From Treponemataceae bacterium (lineage in GTDB: Bacteria; Spirochaetota; Spirochaetia; Treponematales; Rectinemataceae): a stretch of 64,000 nt of DNA. Made by a program: the position numbers. The stretch is taken from NCBI GenBank assembly GCA_963667725.2, contig CAXXHO010000003.1, positions 1,792,001-1,856,000 of the forward strand, written 5' to 3'. Shown in pieces: positions 42,001-51,000 of this stretch. Positions within the stretch are counted from its first letter, which is position 1. Each line of letters starts with the position of its first letter.

Positions 42001-45000
42001 GGGAACGGCCATTTCAGCCGCGGCATCTTTAGCCGCGACGTCTTTAGCTACAGCGTCTTTAGCCTCGAGGGCGCTCAGGAAGGGATCGACGAAGCCGCTT
42101 CCCTCCGAGACGATGCCCACTTTCCCGGGATCGGCGATGACATCGGCCCCTGCCTCATCGCCGAAAAGCGCCTCGGGATCGAAGGCTTCGACGAATTCAG
42201 CCTGTTTCTCAGTGAGGACGATCTGGCCGTCGCGCAGACTCGCGAAGCCAAGAAGGTCGCGCATCGTGTCGGCATCGACGAGGGAAATCTTCGCCAGTTC
42301 CTGGCTGCTCTGGTTGAACTTGACGACGCCCGCGACTTCCACTTCCCTGATGACCGTGCCGGCGGTGTCGCCCAGGGCGCTCAGGACGATCTTTTCGCCC
42401 GCGCCGATATTCTTGCCTGCCGCCTTCGAAAGCATCTGGGCCGACATTTCGGATATGATGATCCAGGCTTGATCCCCGCCCGATGGCCATTGGCCTTCCA
42501 CGAGGCTGATGTTGCCCGAAAAGAAATTCCTGTAATCGGCGATGTCCACGCCGAAAGCCGAGCCTTGGCCGATAACCTGTTCGCCCAAGCCCATGGCCAC
42601 CTGTCCGCTCAGCATAGGAAGGGTCGCCGCGACATTCCTGTCGGCGGACAATCGCTCTGAGTAGCTCGAAAAGGCCGCGATATGGGGGAGGACCTCCTCC
42701 CCGCCGGCGGTTTCGCCGAAAATAGTCGTCGGAAAGCTCGTGGGTCCCGTCACCATGACGTCGCCCGTATAGCCCTCCACGAACATCTTTTTCAAGCCGC
42801 CGATCGCCGTATCGATGAGGGAATTCCCGACGAAGAGCACGGCAATCCCGAGGCACATGATCGTGCCCAGGAGGACGCTCTTCGCCTTGTGCAGGAAAAG
42901 ATTGCCGTAGGCCATTCGAAATAGGATCATGAAGACGCCTTTTCTTCGGCCCGATAATTCTCGACGATCTTTCCGTCCTTGAGCCGTATGACATGGTCGG
43001 CTATGTCGACGATGCCCTGGTCGTGGGTACTGAATATGAAGGTCGTCCCGAACTCGCGGTTCATGCGCTTCATCAGGGCGAGAATGCTCTCGCCCGTCGC
43101 CGAATCGAGGTTGGCGGTCGGCTCGTCGGCAAGGACTATGGGCGGCCTCATGACGAGGGCCCGGGCTATGGCGATCCTCTGGCGCTGGCCGCCGGAGAGC
43201 TCGGCCGGTTTATGCTTCATCCTGTCGGCGAGCCCCACGCTCTCGATGAGATGATCCACCCACTCCTGCCTCTCGTTTTTAGGCATATCGAGGTCGGAAC
43301 CGTCGAGGAGGGCCGGAAGCTCGACGTTTTCTCGTATATTGAGGACGGGAATGAGGTTGAAGGTCTGGAAAATGAAGCCGATGCCCTTATGACGCAGCGC
43401 GGTGAGTTTCTCATCGCCGAGGCTGTCGGTGCGCTGGCCGAGGATGGTTACGCTGCCCGAAGTGGCTGTGTCGACGCAGCCGATGAGATTCAGCACCGTG
43501 GTTTTTCCCGAACCGGAGGGGCCGGCTATCGATATGAAATCGCCCTTGAGAATATCGAAGCTCACGCCCTGCAGGGCGAGGACTTCGGTTTTTCCCAGGG
43601 CATAGCTTTTATGAACATCGTTGAGCCGCACGACATACTGATTTTGTCCGTCCACACATTCCTCCAGGCCATTTAAAAAAAACGAAGCCTTACGATCAGA
43701 TAGAGCGTATACCGACCGCGCCTTTTATTCCATGAAACATTTATTAAAAAATATAACAACGTCGCGCCGCGGTGGCCCTAGCCGCTCGCCGGCGCCACTG
43801 CCTGCCGAAGCGCCTCAGGTGACTTTCATTAAAAGCGTTTATTCCTATATACTATTGCCATTATGGCATATGAAAACTTGCAGGAGTTTGTCTCGGCCCT
43901 CGAATCGGCGGGCGAGCTGAGGCGCGTGAAGGTCGAGGTCGACCCCATCCTCGAGATAACGGAAATCGCCGACAGGGTGATGCGCGACGGCGGCCCGGCC
44001 CTCCTTTTCGAAAAGGTGAAAGGATCGGAATGGCCCCTCCTCATCAACGCGATGGGATCGGAATCGCGGATGGCCATGGCCCTTGGCGCCGAAAGCCTCG
44101 ACGCCAAGTCCAAGGAAATCGAAGACCTTCTCATTTGGGCCTGGAAGCAAGTCCGCGGCTTCTCCCTTTTCACCGCCATTCCCGGCGCTCTTCCCAAGCT
44201 CCCCATAGCGAAATCCCTCCTGCCCAAAAAGGTCAGCCACCCCCTGTGCAGGCAGGTTATCGACGACGAGGCGGGCTTCGACAGCCTCCCCGTCCTCAAG
44301 TGCTGGCCGGGAGACGGAGGGCGCTTCTTCACCCTGCCCGTCGTCTGCACGATGGACCCGGAAATGGGCGCCCAGAACTGGGGCATGTACAGAATGCAGG
44401 TCTACGACGACAGGACGGCGGGAATGCACTGGCACCTCCACAAGGACGGTGCGCATTTCTTCGAGAAATATCGGGCTCGCAAAGAGAGGATGCCGGTCGC
44501 GGTGACGCTGGGCTCGGATCCCGCTGTCACCTATTCCTCGACAGCCCCCTTGCCCGAAGGCATATGGGAGGCCATGTTCGCCGGCTTCCTGCGCGGTAAG
44601 AGCTGTGAGGTGACGAAGGCGAGCCTCTCGGACATACAGATTCCCGCCGACGCGGAATTCGTGCTGGAAGGGTACGTGGACCCGGAGGAGACGAGGCTCG
44701 AAGGCCCCTTCGGCGACCATACGGGCTTCTACTCCCTGCCGGACCAGTACCCCGTCTTCCACCTGGAACGCATAACGCGCAGGAAAAACCCGATATTCCC
44801 CGCCACTATCGTCGGCATCCCTCCCAAGGAAGACTGCTACATGGCGAAGGCCACGGAGCGGCTTTTCCTCCCCCTATTAAGGCAGCTCTGCCCCGAAATC
44901 ACCGATTTCACGATGCCCCTCGAGGGCGTCTTCCACAACTGCGTCATCGTCTCGATAAAGAAACGTTTCCCCGGCCATGCCCGCAAGGTCATGGATTTCA

Positions 45001-48000: not shown

Positions 48001-51000
48001 CGGGCTTTCTTCCCCTACCGAGGGCTGGGTGTCAGTGGGCGGCGAGGCGGGCGGCTCGATCAGGGCCAAGACAGCCCTCATATTTCAGGACTACGGGCTT
48101 CTTCCCTGGGCAAGCGTCCAGGCCAACGCAGAGCTAGGTCTGAGAACGAGGGGAATGAGCGCGGCCGAACGCAGATCCAGGGTGAACCCCATCCTCGCCG
48201 AGCTAGGCCTCGAACCTTTTGCCAGGCTTTATCCCGCGAGACTTTCGGGCGGAATGCGCCAGCGCGTCGCCGTGGCGCGCGCCCTCGCGTCGGACAGCGA
48301 TCTTCTCCTCTTGGATGAGCCATTTTCAAGCCTCGACGCCCTCACAAGGGAATCCCTGCAGGAAACCCTTCTCGAAACCCAGCGCAGGCATGGCACCACG
48401 GTAATTCTCGTCACGCACTCCATCGAGGAAGCGGCCTATCTGGCCGACACCATCTATATCCTGGACGGAAAGAATCCCTCCACCCTCTCGGCCCGCTTCG
48501 ATACGGACCGAAGAAGGATCGCCGTCCCGGCCGCCCTCCCCGCCCTCCCCTCCGGAATCGCTCCAGAAAGTCCCAACGCGTCCCCCGCGGGCTCGAATCC
48601 GACATCCGTGAAATCCCCGGCACAGGACGCGGCGGCAACCTCCTACAGGGAAAGCAGCCATTACTTTTCGAATGTGGCGACGCTCCGCCATCTCTTCGCC
48701 CATCCCCCCGGCGGAGCGGGGAAGACGGAGAACGAAATCCCGGAAGATGGTTCGCCGTCCCCCGCCCATGTCCGGGCGATCGGCTTTATGATGAGGCTCG
48801 GCAAGATCGCCCTGGCGGCTTCGGCGATCGCCCTTCTTTGGGCCGGCCTTTCCTTCATCCTCAAGAAACCCTTCCTGCCCTCTCCCGCCTTAGCGGCCAG
48901 CCGTTTCGGCGAAAAAATAGCCGACGGAACGCTTTTCGTCCACATCGGCGCGTCGCTGAGACGTATTTTCCTTGCCCTGATCGTCGCCGGCCCTCCCGCC
49001 TGGGCGCTCGGCCTGCTTTCGGGGCGCGTAAAGGCGGCGGACACGATAGCCTCGCCCCTCGTCTACCTTCTCCACCCCCTGCCTAAAGTGGCTTTCCTGC
49101 CGATATTGATGCTGTTCTTCGGCCTGGGGGACGCCTCGAAGGTCGCGCTCATGGGAATGGTGATCTTCGGTCAGCTTTTCGTCGGAGGAAGGGATTCGGC
49201 CAAGGCCATATCCTCCTCGCTCATCGACACGGTCCGCTCATTGGGCGTCCGCGGAGGAGGAATCCTGCGCTATGCCATCCTGCCCGCCACCCTTCCATCC
49301 CTTCTTTCGTCGCTGAGGATAAGCCTAGGCACGGCCATAGCCGTGCTTTTCCTGTCCGAAACCTTCGCGTCGATGGACGGCCTCGGCTGGTACATCATGG
49401 ATTCATGGTCCCGAGTGGACTATCCCGACATGTACGCGGCCATCATCGCCCTCTCCCTCGTCGGCCTCGTACTCTACCTCGCCCTGGACGCCCTCGAAAT
49501 CCTCGCCCTCCGCTGGCGCGAAACCGATTGAGACTTTCTACTCAGCCGCCTCGGGTAGCACGCGCACGAGCGACTCGTTGAAACCGATCGACACGGACTC
49601 GCCTTCGCCGGCTATGCGCTTTTCGGCCGGATCGTCGACCTGCACGAGGATTTCCCCGTACTGCGTCTTCACGAAGACCTCCACGCTCGACCCCAGATAG
49701 ACCCGCGCCGAAACCGTCCCCTCGGCCAAGCCCTGCCCCGGGCTGTGGAGACGCAGCGATTCTGGCCTCGCCATGATCACCGCCTTGTCCCCCGCCGCTA
49801 TCCCATCAGCCTTGTGCCCCGCCCTGACCTTTCTTCCGGCGAGAGAGCACTGACAGGAACCGTCCGCCTCGACAGCGTCCAACGTCACCGGGAAAAACGC
49901 CACCTTGCCCACGAATCCGGCCACGAAGACCGAATTGGGTTTCTCATAGATATCGCTGGGCGAGCCGATCTGCCTGACGAGGCCGTTTTTCATGACGATG
50001 ACCCTGTCCGAAAGACTCATGGCCTCGATCCTGTCGTGCGTGACGTAAATCGCCGTGATGCCGAGCGTTTTCTGGATTCTCCGGATCTCAATGCGCATCT
50101 GCTCGCGCAGGAGGGCATCCAGATTGGAAAGCGGCTCGTCGAGCAGCAGGACCTGGGGCTCCACGACAAGACATCGCGCGAGAGCGACGCGCTGCTGCTG
50201 GCCGCCCGAAAGCCGCCCCGGAGAGCGCTTGGCCAGGTCGGCCAGGCCCACGAGATCGAGGGCTTTCTTCACTCTTTCCTGGATTTCGGATGCCGGCCGC
50301 TTGCGGATCTTGAGCCCGTAGGCCACGTTTTCCTCGACATTGAAATGGGGGAAAAGTCCATAGGACTGAAAAACCGTCGCCGTCTCGCGGCCGTTGGGCG
50401 GCAGATAGGTGACGTCGTTGCCCCCGATGAGGATCTTGCCCTTGGTGGGCAGCTCGAAACCGCCGATCATGCGCAGAGTCGTCGTCTTTCCGCAGCCCGA
50501 GGGTCCGAGCAGCGTGACGAGCTCGCCGGGCTGGATTTCGAAGTTCGCGTCCCGGACGGCATGGACTTCCGCCTTGGTCTTGGGATCCCTGAAAGTCTTG
50601 GACACCATTTCGAGCGTAACAGGTACTGATTGTGCTGCCATTCTGAAATCCTTTCCTTATTGGACTGAAACAGTTTTTTCCAGATGCTCGCTCTGACGGA
50701 TCAGAAGCCTCATGAGCCCGAAAACCGCGAGGACGATGACGATCAGGGTCGTCGAAAGGACGCTCGCCAGACCGAAACGGATGTTCTCGGAGAAGTTGTA
50801 GATCTGGATGGTGATATGGTACCAGCGCGCGCTGATGAGGAAGATGATGGCGCTCACCGCCGTCATGGAGCGCACGAAGGTGTAGGACATGGACGAGATG
50901 AAGGCCGGCCTGATGAGGGGCATGATGATCGTCCTGAAGATCACGGACTGGTCGGCGCCGAGATCGGCGGCCGCCTCCTCGATGGAGGGGTCTATCTGCC

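Follow-up and report, generated by a model that had tools for sequence, protein, structure and literature searches.

A late-step menaquinone operon with a candidate ring-precursor importer in a spirochete of the family Rectinemataceae

The window analysed here is a 64,000-nt stretch of contig CAXXHO010000003.1 from a spirochete of the family Rectinemataceae (order Treponematales), whose genome (G000; 4.22 Mb, 8 contigs) is 97.0% complete with 6.3% contamination. Five ORFs, all on the plus strand, occupy positions 43863..49531 of this window (Table 1). The first-pass annotation had described five co-directional genes; the ORF listing placed them at exactly the same coordinates, and the family assignments agree. 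The spacings along the operon are -14, +11, -19, and +9 nt. The value of -19 nt between the UbiX and the solute-binding protein (SBP) genes becomes +14 nt if the SBP begins at its 12th codon, which is the start in the Atlas record; this start, at position 46868, is the likely one. Since the flanking genes on both sides (42927-43655 and 49538-50641) lie on the opposite strand, the five genes represent a self-contained unit. A sigma-70 consensus scan of the upstream gap, in which the promoter is presumably located, yielded no site, and no Rfam family or riboswitch (FMN riboswitch included) was detected within 43400-49900.

Table 1. Features of the operon and its upstream region (positions in the window).
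Feature	Position	Strand	Length	Supporting data
Presumed promoter region (upstream intergenic)	43656..43862	+	207 nt	AT-richer gap after divergent gene ending 43655
UbiD-family decarboxylase, menaquinone type (MqnL / SCO4490)	43863..45320	+	485 aa	TIGR03701; UbiD_N, UbiD, UbiD_C
UbiA-family aromatic prenyltransferase, MqnP-like	45307..46242	+	311 aa	PF01040 162.8 bits
UbiX-family flavin prenyltransferase (MqnM-like)	46254..46853	+	199 aa	TIGR00421 162.8 bits (cut-off 108.9); PF02441 123.5 bits
Secreted NMT1/THI5-type SBP (P0001)	46835..47821	+	328 aa	NMT1 48.4, NMT1_2 42.3 bits
Fused ABC ATPase (N-terminal) and permease (C-terminal) (P0002)	47831..49531	+	566 aa	ABC_tran 26-165, BPD_transp_1 392-555

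The UbiD-family protein scores 593.6 bits with TIGR03701 and passes the equivalog cut-off (495.9), while its score with the Escherichia coli-type UbiD model NF008175 (410.8) is below the cut-off of 788. The UbiA-family protein has seven hydrophobic segments and shows its top NCBIfam match to MqnP_DT (258.8 bits; cut-off 430). None of the three curated MqnP cut-offs is reached, and models for UbiA-like proteins in general give scores as high as those for MqnP; TIGR01475 ('UbiA-like') gives 257 and is over its cut-off of 180.8. The start codon of this gene is uncertain, because the alignments of its relatives begin only at residue 38. It is the single match to PF01040 in the genome, which therefore has no separate MenA. 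UbiX enzymes supply prenyl-FMN to UbiD enzymes, and by this established biochemistry the operon-encoded UbiX would make prenyl-FMN for its UbiD partner.

Adjacent genes of the same three families are predicted to encode the late futalosine steps MqnP, MqnL, and MqnM (SCO4491/4490/4492 type; Ravcheev and Thiele, 2016, PMC4746308); the likeness extends to the UbiD passing TIGR03701 and to the UbiA being nearest to MqnP models. That these steps are themselves published predictions, as remarked earlier, agrees with this survey (PMC4746308). In that survey, MqnP/L/M genes occurred only in genomes that also possess early Mqn genes (PMC4746308). The spirochete differs from those genomes in that MqnA/D and MqnE were not found, an ABC importer is included in the operon, and the UbiA is below the MqnP cut-offs.

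The earlier claim that this genome is devoid of naphthoate-ring enzymes was borne out for the families searched, namely MqnA/D, MqnE, chorismate-binding enzymes, MenD, and MenB. PF02621 (MqnA/MqnD), TIGR03700 (MqnE), and PF00425 gave 0 matches each, and the best scores for MenD and MenB were 77.4 bits (cut-off 244) and 114 bits (cut-off 342.7), respectively. Chorismate synthase was found, so the gap in the pathway lies after chorismate. Among 401 Treponematales genomes, PF02621 was strong in a single one, which has no MqnL match, and reached only 27-57 bits in 24; partial matches (27-49 bits) were present in 6 of the 97 MqnL-type genomes. The order-wide counts reported before are close to ours (PF02621 strong in 1/401; SBP at E<=1e-10 in 139/401). 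Ubie_methyltran gave seven weak, partial matches in the spirochete genome (23-38 bits), all above Pfam's cut-off.

The SBP possesses a readable Sec-type signal peptide at its N-terminus, and its AlphaFold model (mean pLDDT 92.5) displays a two-lobe binding-protein fold. The closest solved folds revealed by Foldseek were SsuA, ThiY, TauA, Thi5, and PqqT (TM 0.6-0.73, 13-21% identity). The best sequence match to solved SBPs had an E of 3e-4, and the score with SsuA_fam (75.2) was below the cut-off of 163.5. With all five folds matching alike, the fold search does not discriminate between ligands. MqnA and MqnD, which have a similar fold and handle related compounds, did not appear among the 50 top-ranked matches, out of at least 500 in the Foldseek search. 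In the fused protein, hydrophobic segments are confined to the C-terminal half (residues 317-552); in NCBIfam it comes nearest to ATPases for taurine, sulfonate, and nitrate, without reaching any of their cut-offs. Its domains predict a type I importer that would work with the SBP. In family f4, ATPase and permease are encoded by two separate genes. The system thus resembles the NMT1/TauT-type importers of cofactors or precursors, ThiY (thiamine pyrimidine precursor) and PqqT (pyrroloquinoline quinone), in its two-lobe SBP fold and type I importer, but differs by the fusion of ATPase and permease in this lineage and by the low identity to solved SBPs given above. Dihydroxynaphthoate, the ligand proposed here, would be new for this family.

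The five-gene order is kept in 8/8 close loci, as far as the contigs extend, and all five genes are present in 8/13 distant loci (SBP identity 43-53%); the conservation claimed previously thus applies to close and many distant loci. At an SBP threshold of E<=1e-40, 89 of the 401 genomes have both the SBP and an MqnL-type gene, 8 the SBP alone, 8 MqnL alone, and 296 neither, although these counts overstate independence because the compared genomes are relatives. SBP fragments are held by 4 of the 8 MqnL-alone genomes. With 89/97 SBP carriers possessing MqnL, SBP homologs do occur across the order alongside menaquinone genes, as had been proposed. The linkage is not absolute: UbiX alone adjoins the importer in G024, and the importer stands by itself in G036. 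Also, SBP-ABC pairs at 30-39% identity occur without adjacent quinone genes. These pairs, the many ligands of the SBP family (the fold matches cover sulfonates, taurine, a thiamine precursor, thiamine, and PQQ), and the equal scores of the UbiA with general models while below the curated MqnP cut-offs would fit an importer for some other solute, such as 4-hydroxybenzoate, another aromatic acid, a sulfonate, or a pyrimidine. The enzymes would then make another prenylated aromatic, or the linkage would be historical and not functional.

Two genomes, G124 and G160, which are the only members of the MenA-linked importer set, bear on this alternative. In G124, the importer is located head-to-head with a MenA-type gene, its only related neighbor. 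The order in G160 is NDH-2, two FMN_bind proteins (FMN_bind x3 and FMN_bind), polyprenyl synthase, a MenA-type gene, and then the importer. Neither genome has an MqnL match, or MenD or MenB above cut-off; they represent the MenA version of salvage together with the operon-type importer. Their SBPs pair in the tree (98/95 support), are nested among the MqnL-linked SBPs of f4, and form a fast-evolving sub-branch with end branches 3-4 times longer. They have in common D55A, Y127F, and Y263F, at positions invariant in the other 17 orthologues compared. Such a pattern is what a ligand switch alongside a prenyltransferase switch would look like. Transport of another solute is unlikely in our view: two unrelated kinds of naphthoate prenyltransferase are linked to the importer, MqnL is present in 89/97 importer genomes, and the UbiD passes the menaquinone-type equivalog cut-off but fails the ubiquinone one. 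Hydroxylases and methyltransferases would have to act on a product of 4-hydroxybenzoate before NDH-2 could use it as a quinone. MqnP, MqnL, and MqnM alone would convert dihydroxynaphthoate to a finished quinone, but 4-hydroxybenzoate only to a polyprenylphenol.

A strong MenA-type gene is present in nine genomes, five of which have no SBP homolog (E<=1e-10); MenD and MenB were also not found in these five, and naphthoate uptake is therefore not always dependent on this importer. The same five genomes, with neither early genes nor importer, could point to intracellular ring synthesis by as yet undiscovered enzymes (non-orthologous early steps), with the transporter serving another purpose or as a supplement. 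The chorismate synthase of our spirochete is compatible with this, and quinone pathways offer known cases of non-orthologous replacement (PMC4746308). We consider it very unlikely, given that no ring-synthesis candidate was detected in or beside the operon in the 28 loci examined, that the operon includes a dedicated, presumably high-affinity importer, making salvage the simplest explanation, and that salvage of 1,4-dihydroxy-2-naphthoate by late-gene-only bacteria was shown experimentally in other phyla (PMC5738691, PMC10746273).

The spirochete shares with the MenA/DmkA-only salvagers (gut isolates and Lactiplantibacillus plantarum; PMC5738691, PMC10746273, PMC9888254) a fermentative lifestyle without ring synthesis, a predicted dependence on a soluble precursor from neighbors, and a type II NADH dehydrogenase that would use the quinone. 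Unlike these salvagers of 1,4-dihydroxy-2-naphthoate, which use a MenA-type enzyme, it has futalosine-type late steps and an encoded importer. In the passages concerned, the transporter of those salvagers has 'not been described to date' or is 'yet to be identified' (PMC5738691, PMC10746273).

A quinone user is encoded elsewhere in the genome. A membrane-anchored NDH-2 of 672 aa (G000:C3:2247299-2249314, contig coordinates) with a C-terminal membrane extension resembles NDH-2 enzymes of solved structure (4nwz, E 8e-68; YjlD; S. aureus NDH-2). It adjoins a polyprenyl synthase of the long-chain type, with heptaprenyl, hexaprenyl, and solanesyl synthases as best models. Eight lipoprotein FMN_bind+FAD_binding_2 reductases and ApbE were also found. 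NDH-2 was found in 102/105 genomes that carry MqnL or a strong MenA-type gene and in 3/55 sampled genomes that carry neither. It adjoins MqnL in G005, G010, G015, and G020 and MenA in G037, G116, G224, G371, and G160; in G128, MqnL, MqnP, MqnM, SBP, ATPase, permease, NDH-2, and polyprenyl synthase all lie on one strand.

Part of this gene set is reminiscent of the flavin-based extracellular electron transfer (FLEET) locus of Listeria and Lactiplantibacillus, described as Ndh2, DmkA, DmkB, PplA, EetA/B, and FmnA/B (PMC9888254). Shared traits are the NDH-2 whose C-terminus carries an additional membrane part, encoded beside a polyprenyl synthase, the FMN_bind proteins with ApbE, and the gene order of G160. 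Unlike FLEET, the genes of this diderm spirochete lie at several chromosomal places, MqnP/L/M take the place of DmkA, and periplasmic lipoprotein reductases probably serve as acceptors.

The flavin transport genes of that locus (PMC9888254) suggest an alternative role for the importer, namely uptake of riboflavin or FMN for UbiX prenyl-FMN and for ApbE flavinylation of periplasmic reductases, with the ring precursor arriving by another route or by diffusion. Lumazine synthase (RibH) has no match in the spirochete genome; riboflavin is therefore not made, and flavin import is needed somewhere. The neighbor of the SBP is almost always UbiX, the sole companion of the importer in G024, and the G160 importer sits in a locus with FMN_bind proteins. 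This reading is weakened, and we regard it as distinctly unlikely. A full-length orthologue of the riboflavin-binding TP0298/RfuA of Treponema pallidum is encoded elsewhere in the genome (4iil, E 7e-84; PMC3573665). RibH is missing in 38/40 sampled importer genomes but also in 31/40 sampled genomes without the importer, which is therefore not the general flavin supply of the order. No FMN riboswitch precedes the operon, and the only related neighbor of the G124 importer is a MenA-type gene. The invariant SBP positions change exactly where the prenyltransferase type changes, which a flavin ligand would not require.

We consider it fairly probable that the importer brings in dihydroxynaphthoate and that the operon turns it into (demethyl)menaquinone for NDH-2. 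The first-pass reading as a late-step operon with precursor import is supported, its testable parts having held, because the operon is conserved, the ring-making families searched were not found in this genome or across the MqnL-bearing genomes of the order, and the SBP co-occurs with MqnL; further support comes from NDH-2 tracking the prenylation genes, the importer beside MenA, and the SBP changes in G124 and G160. The ligand itself is inferred from gene context; the most economical candidate is 1,4-dihydroxy-6-naphthoate, after which the futalosine pathway has no further soluble intermediate. In the direction and order that we infer, the periplasmic SBP would capture soluble dihydroxynaphthoate released by other microbes, and a homodimer of the fused ATPase-permease would import it. 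The MqnP-like UbiA would add a polyprenyl tail provided by the synthase beside NDH-2, and the MqnL-type UbiD, with UbiX-made prenyl-FMN, would remove the carboxyl group. The product would be demethylmenaquinone, or menaquinone if a weak methyltransferase candidate acts. It would be reduced by the membrane-anchored type II NADH:quinone oxidoreductase, and the quinol electrons would then probably pass to the eight flavinylated lipoprotein reductases of the periplasm, in the manner of the flavin-based electron-transfer loci of Listeria and Lactiplantibacillus.

In this way, a fermentative spirochete may gain a membrane naphthoquinone without building the vitamin K2 ring itself. A transporter for such a ring precursor was not found in the literature searched; if our proposal is true, the importer of this operon is the first candidate transporter for a menaquinone ring precursor.

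The operon consists of five genes on the forward strand, spaced by –14, +11, –19, and +9 nt. Their ORF coordinates, strand, and family matches agree with the first-pass annotation, which had described a five-gene unit of late menaquinone enzymes and an ABC importer. Both flanks are occupied by genes on the opposite strand, encoding an ABC ATPase (42927–43655) and a PotA-like ATPase (49538–50641). Promoter/terminator and Rfam scans of 43400–49900 revealed no riboswitch, promoter, or terminator above chance. The divergent reverse-strand segment 40094–43655 encodes a LolD/MacB-type ATPase and a pair of FtsX-family permeases; a MacB periplasmic domain is present in one of the two. 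The convergent reverse-strand segment 49538–52939 encodes a second ABC importer; its PotA-like ATPase carries a TOBE domain, and its permease (760 aa, two BPD_transp_1 domains) is PhnU2-like but below the cut-off.

Genes of the operon and their family assignment (positions counted along the window)
Gene product	Position	Strand	Assignment
UbiD-family decarboxylase	43863–45320	+	TIGR03701, 593.6 bits (cut-off 495.9)
UbiA-family prenyltransferase	45307–46242	+	Best model MqnP_DT, 258.8 bits (cut-off 430)
UbiX flavin prenyltransferase	46254–46853	+	TIGR00421, 162.8 bits (subfamily cut-off 108.9)
NMT1/THI5-type substrate-binding protein (SBP)	46835–47821	+	Pfam match; Sec signal peptide read from sequence
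Fused ABC ATPase-permease	47831–49531	+	ATPase in first 230 residues, BPD_transp_1 in last 250

The UbiD-family protein passed the cut-off of the menaquinone-type equivalog and failed that of the ubiquinone-type model NF008175 (410.8 vs. 788 bits). Decarboxylation of prenylated dihydroxynaphthoate by MqnL is given as a predicted activity in PMC4746308. The UbiA-family protein scored below all curated MqnP cut-offs (NF041586, 258.8/430; NF041584, 183.5/420; NF041585, 179.7/375) and above that of the UbiA-like family TIGR01475 (257 vs. 180.8 bits). Judging from these scores, it may have an MqnP-like function, though it is no member of a curated MqnP family.

The importer is a complete set of the type I, NitT/TauT kind, with a secreted NMT1-type SBP, an ABC ATPase, and a BPD_transp_1 permease, all of which passed the Pfam cut-offs. 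Hydrophobic segments of the ATPase-permease fusion were confined to its second half. The SBP, whose structure model has a pLDDT of 92.5, falls outside the sulfonate-binding subfamily TIGR01728 (75.2 vs. 163.5 bits). A sequence search against solved structures gave nothing better than E 3e-4. Foldseek returned many NMT1-type folds of equal quality without a pointer to the ligand, and the protein Atlas returned generic NMT1 clusters only. A disguised MqnA/MqnD-like enzyme was considered for this protein and dropped in view of its signal peptide, its ABC partner, and the absence of PF02621 matches from the whole of G000, the genome carrying the window; no MqnA/D structure occurred among the Foldseek matches listed (the best 50 of at least 500).

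Within G000 (assembly size 4.22 Mb, 97.0% complete, 6.3% contamination), the window belongs to the largest contig. The whole assembly was subjected to six-frame family searches, in which control genomes matched as expected each time. These searches gave no matches in G000 to PF02621 (MqnA and MqnD), TIGR03700 (MqnE), or PF00425 (chorismate-binding enzymes including MenF). The best scores for MenD and MenB in G000 were 77.4 bits (cut-off 244) and 114 bits (cut-off 342.7). The earlier claim that ring-making families are missing from this genome was thus confirmed for PF02621, TIGR03700, PF00425, and MenD. Chorismate synthase is present, so the gap starts after chorismate. Enzymes outside the known families, to which such searches are blind, might instead make the ring de novo; we consider this unlikely. 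The UbiA-family gene of the operon was the only one found in G000, which therefore has no separate MenA; the MenA/DmkA-type model NF004752 also had no match. In the survey of PMC4746308, MqnP, MqnL, and MqnM are found only alongside the early futalosine genes. G000 differs in that its MqnL was not accompanied by them, as tested with PF02621 and TIGR03700.

For the methylation step, seven matches to Ubie_methyltran were detected in G000. They are weak and partial (23–38 bits, at most 142 of 233 positions), so that either a methylated or an unmethylated product is possible. Two methyltransferase-like matches of the same score and E-value are located 8.8 kb apart on contig C7 (44304–44699 and 53157–53552). 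They point to a repeated segment, which may be what the first-pass annotation referred to as mobile regions.

The distribution of the genes was surveyed in 401 Treponematales genomes. TIGR03701 was matched above its cut-off in 87 of them. Ninety-seven genomes were counted as MqnL-type on the basis of a best E-value of 1e-70 or lower, including contig-end fragments, plus G214, where a fragment at a contig start adjoins the SBP gene. With SBP presence defined as a match at E ≤ 1e-40, the SBP was present in 89 and not found in 8 of the MqnL-type genomes, and was present in 8 and not found in 296 of the others; since the genomes are relatives, these numbers describe a pattern and are not a statistic. 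Where only MqnL was found, four of the eight genomes contained SBP fragments (41–52% identity) at contig ends. The eight genomes with SBP only included two with a MenA-type gene (the dihydroxynaphthoate prenyltransferase of the classical pathway), three fragmented assemblies, and two with SBPs of just 29–30% identity. A strong match to PF02621 (187 bits) was obtained in a single genome of the 401, G045, which has no MqnL match. In the same genome, in which MqnL was searched at E ≤ 1e-30, a MenA-like match of 159 bits was seen. Another 24 matches to PF02621 were partial (27–57 bits, in ORFs of 326–555 aa); MqnL-type genomes account for six. These matches appear to be binding proteins of a different kind that belong to the same class of folds.

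Matches to the SBP at E ≤ 1e-10 were found in 139 of the 401 genomes. In eight close loci, with SBPs 61–96% identical, the order UbiD-UbiA-UbiX-SBP-ABC was kept as far as the contigs reach: five were complete, one was truncated within its last gene where the contig ends, one began inside UbiX, and one stopped after the SBP. The depositors had labelled the source organisms as Rectinemataceae, Treponemataceae, Spirochaetaceae, or just 'bacterium'. Twenty further loci were fetched across families f4 and f6, 13 with SBPs of 43–53% identity and 7 with 30–39%. All five genes occurred together in eight of the former. The remaining five comprised UbiX-SBP-ABC only (G024), SBP-ABC without adjoining enzymes (G036 and G097), and two loci with a MenA-type context (G124 and G160). 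An MqnL match was found elsewhere in G024, G036, and G097, in the last case on the contig of the importer itself, 10 kb upstream. The seven loci with less similar SBPs contained the SBP and ABC genes only. In family f4, the ATPase and permease are separate genes, which makes their fusion a lineage trait. The close loci and the eight complete distant ones bear out the first-pass annotation, in which most loci fetched from several families of the order showed the same five-gene arrangement.

Some loci showed local peculiarities. In G097 (L066, C100:51500–67500), genes for a 602-aa TPR protein and an 1852-aa bacterial Ig-like protein lie between MqnL and the SBP, the MqnL gene being located about 2 kb before locus L066; the operon looks split by an insertion. 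In L010 and L012, both on public MAG contigs, the UbiD alignment is broken into two or three pieces that overlap and differ in frame, owing to frameshifts or to errors of assembly. In several relatives (e.g., G013, G055, G119, G051, G087, and G155), the frame containing the SBP measures 510–814 aa from stop to stop, so that UbiX and SBP may share it. Two of the genomes carrying the operon, G056 and G327, consist of one contig each and probably stem from isolates.

In G160, the MenA-type context is a single-strand run that encodes a 652-aa Pyr_redox_2 protein, a triple-FMN_bind protein, a second FMN_bind protein, a polyprenyl synthase, a MenA-type UbiA, and, last, the importer, which is orthologous to that of G000 (43% identity). 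This run has the same make-up as the flavin-based electron-transfer locus of Listeria/Lactiplantibacillus (PMC9888254). The best models for the UbiA of G160 were 1,4-dihydroxy-2-naphthoate polyprenyltransferases (NF004752, 230 bits vs. cut-off 289). MqnL had no match in G160 or G124. Within the same genus, as assigned by the taxonomy of the tool, G128 has MqnL/P/M before the importer and G160 a MenA-type gene. MenD and MenB over cut-off were absent from all nine MenA-type genomes as well as from G128 and G000, so the MenA-type genomes are also late-step-only. No SBP homologue (E ≤ 1e-10) was found in five of these nine genomes; naphthoate is evidently obtainable by other routes, which counts against a strict need for the importer.

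A tree of 25 SBP sequences was constructed with IQ-TREE. The MenA-linked SBPs of G124 and G160 paired (98/95) inside the f4 MqnL-linked SBPs, beside G056 and G128 (91/86), and had end branches of 0.51–0.57 versus 0.12–0.19 for their neighbours. We compared 58 SBP positions at which the family shows no or almost no variation. Residues D55, Y127, and Y263 were kept in all 14 MqnL-linked SBPs and in three SBPs from genomes with MqnL elsewhere. The MenA-linked SBPs of G124 and G160 instead carry A55, F127, and F263; four further changes were seen in one of the pair. In the SBP model, positions 55 and 127 lie in loops after beta strands, where binding proteins of this fold would usually touch the ligand. 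The simplest reading, to be taken as a lead from two sequences, is that the ligand switched from a 6-carboxy to a 2-carboxy dihydroxynaphthoate together with the prenyltransferase. When metagenomes were scanned with the MenA-linked pair of SBPs, only the known contig and one 27%-identical stretch were retrieved, so the set stays at two. The scores of the operon UbiA are also compatible with the import of another aromatic acid, such as 4-hydroxybenzoate; this alternative is at odds with the UbiD equivalog and with the MenA context, and we regard it as unlikely. A product of 4-hydroxybenzoate would be no quinone unless further enzymes acted on it.

The usual quinone partners cytochrome bd, NrfD, NuoH, and Ni_hydr_CYTB (the b-type cytochromes of hydrogenases and formate dehydrogenases) were not found in G000. 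Because these classical respiratory partners were not found, a type II NADH:quinone oxidoreductase (NDH-2) was looked for. Using the proteins of G160, we identified a 672-aa NDH-2 (C3:2247299–2249314) on the same contig as the operon, about 410 kb away. Residues 4–396 match solved NDH-2 structures (4nwz, E 8e-68; B. subtilis YjlD; S. aureus NDH-2). The C-terminal extension of about 270 aa contains hydrophobic segments as well as a low-complexity stretch rich in Ala and Thr. A polyprenyl synthase gene follows directly, the pair spanning C3:2247299–2250406 (locus L089:9300–12416). Its product is of the long-chain type, with heptaprenyl, hexaprenyl, and solanesyl synthase models nearest, all below their cut-offs. 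FMN_bind gave 15 matches in G000. Eight proteins of 577–833 aa with lipoprotein signals combine one or two FMN_bind domains with FAD_binding_2 (contigs C1, C3, C5, and C7; loci L078–L085), an architecture assigned to the 'fumarate reductase-like' type of flavinylated extracytosolic enzymes (PMC8238504). The ApbE flavin transferase was also present (311.5 bits). The two 577-aa FMN_bind proteins encoded on C1 and C7, both small contigs, have near-identical N-termini, pointing to either recent duplication or a repeated element.

G000 accordingly shares with FLEET-type systems a specialised NDH-2 adjoining a polyprenyl synthase, an ApbE/FmnB flavin transferase, and secreted FMN_bind proteins; it differs from them in the absence of a MenA/DmkA-type prenyltransferase, which is present in its relatives G124 and G160. 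Enzymes for reducing a quinone and for making its tail are present in the genome, as are plausible electron sinks, and the joining of ring and tail is left to the operon only.

The link to NDH-2 was also seen across the order. The query NDH-2 of G000 was searched in 105 positive genomes (97 MqnL-type and 9 whose MenA-type match reached 225 bits or more, one being shared) and in 55 of 135 genomes evenly drawn from the 237 available without any of the three genes. At E ≤ 1e-30, NDH-2 was found in 102 of the 105 positives (missing in G092, G242, and G261) and in 3 of the 55 negatives (G075, G101, and G165). The match in G246 was to a shorter protein of 29% identity only. By coordinates, NDH-2 adjoins MqnL in G005, G010, G015, and G020; in G037, G116, G224, G371, and G160, no more than about 3 kb separate it from the MenA-type gene. 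In G128, the genes for MqnL, MqnP, MqnM, SBP, ATPase, permease, NDH-2, and polyprenyl synthase are lined up in this order on one strand.

Flavin is the strongest rival cargo of the importer. Lumazine synthase is missing in G000, UbiX is the usual neighbour of the importer, and the Gram-positive electron-transfer locus includes flavin transport genes; we nevertheless consider flavin import quite unlikely, as one of the six Bmp-family SBPs of G000 (C3:554036–555094, locus L093) aligns at full length with T. pallidum TP0298 (4iil, E 7e-84), the riboflavin-binding lipoprotein RfuA (PMC3573665). Among sampled genomes, RibH was detected in 2 of 40 that have the importer versus 9 of 40 that lack it; since RibH is rare also where the importer is missing, most flavin-needing genomes manage without this transporter. 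Moreover, the sole related neighbour of the importer in G124 is the MenA-type gene, and a flavin ligand leaves the SBP changes unexplained.

We therefore return to the uptake of a naphthoate precursor, as proposed in the first-pass annotation. This proposal was supported and extended by the link to NDH-2 and by the MenA-linked importers, the ligand being deduced from context. The operon would act as a salvage module, composed of an importer and three finishing enzymes, and the demethylmenaquinone (DMK) or menaquinone formed would supply an NDH-2-based electron sink. That the operon enzymes make a naphthoquinone for NDH-2 is highly probable, and the transporter rather likely imports a ring precursor. 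The more specific identification of this precursor as 1,4-dihydroxy-6-naphthoate is tentative.

The late futalosine steps were predicted by Ravcheev and Thiele, and experimental proof was called for (PMC4746308). Salvage of 1,4-dihydroxy-2-naphthoate by MenA-only organisms is established for gut isolates and L. plantarum (PMC5738691; PMC10746273). According to these three reports, no precursor transporter is known (PMC4746308; PMC5738691; PMC10746273): quinone-precursor transporters 'remain to be annotated' (PMC4746308, 2016) and the uptake system is 'yet to be identified' (PMC10746273, 2023). A literature search, subscription journals and supplements aside, gave no description of such an importer, of futalosine-type salvage, or of quinone use in Treponematales. 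The terms salvage, auxotroph, uptake, exogenous, MqnP, and MqnL are not mentioned in the 2026 survey of quinone pathways (PMC13386864).

ABC importers and late quinone steps are each already known; what would be new is the combination of a candidate importer with a late-step pathway. Having a clear binding protein, this importer is a first candidate for the missing transporter that is open to direct tests. The broadest reading, more tentative still, holds jointly that this is the first dedicated transporter of a soluble menaquinone-ring precursor, that its SBP was retuned between 1,4-dihydroxy-6- and 1,4-dihydroxy-2-naphthoate as MqnP/L/M gave way to a MenA-type enzyme, and that about a quarter of the sampled Treponematales are precursor auxotrophs. 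The occurrence of MqnP/L/M or MenA beside the same importer represents a natural experiment on ligand specificity.

Treponematales are classically viewed as fermenters without quinone. For many anaerobes that are fastidious or have yet to be cultured, soluble quinone precursors are known to act as growth factors. Our findings suggest a salvage form of the futalosine pathway and a quinone-dependent electron sink in many free-living and gut Treponematales, which bears on culturing and on anaerobic cross-feeding. If this is true, carriers of the operon would run electrons from NDH-2 via DMK to flavinylated periplasmic reductases and would depend on ring makers of the futalosine or classical pathway nearby.
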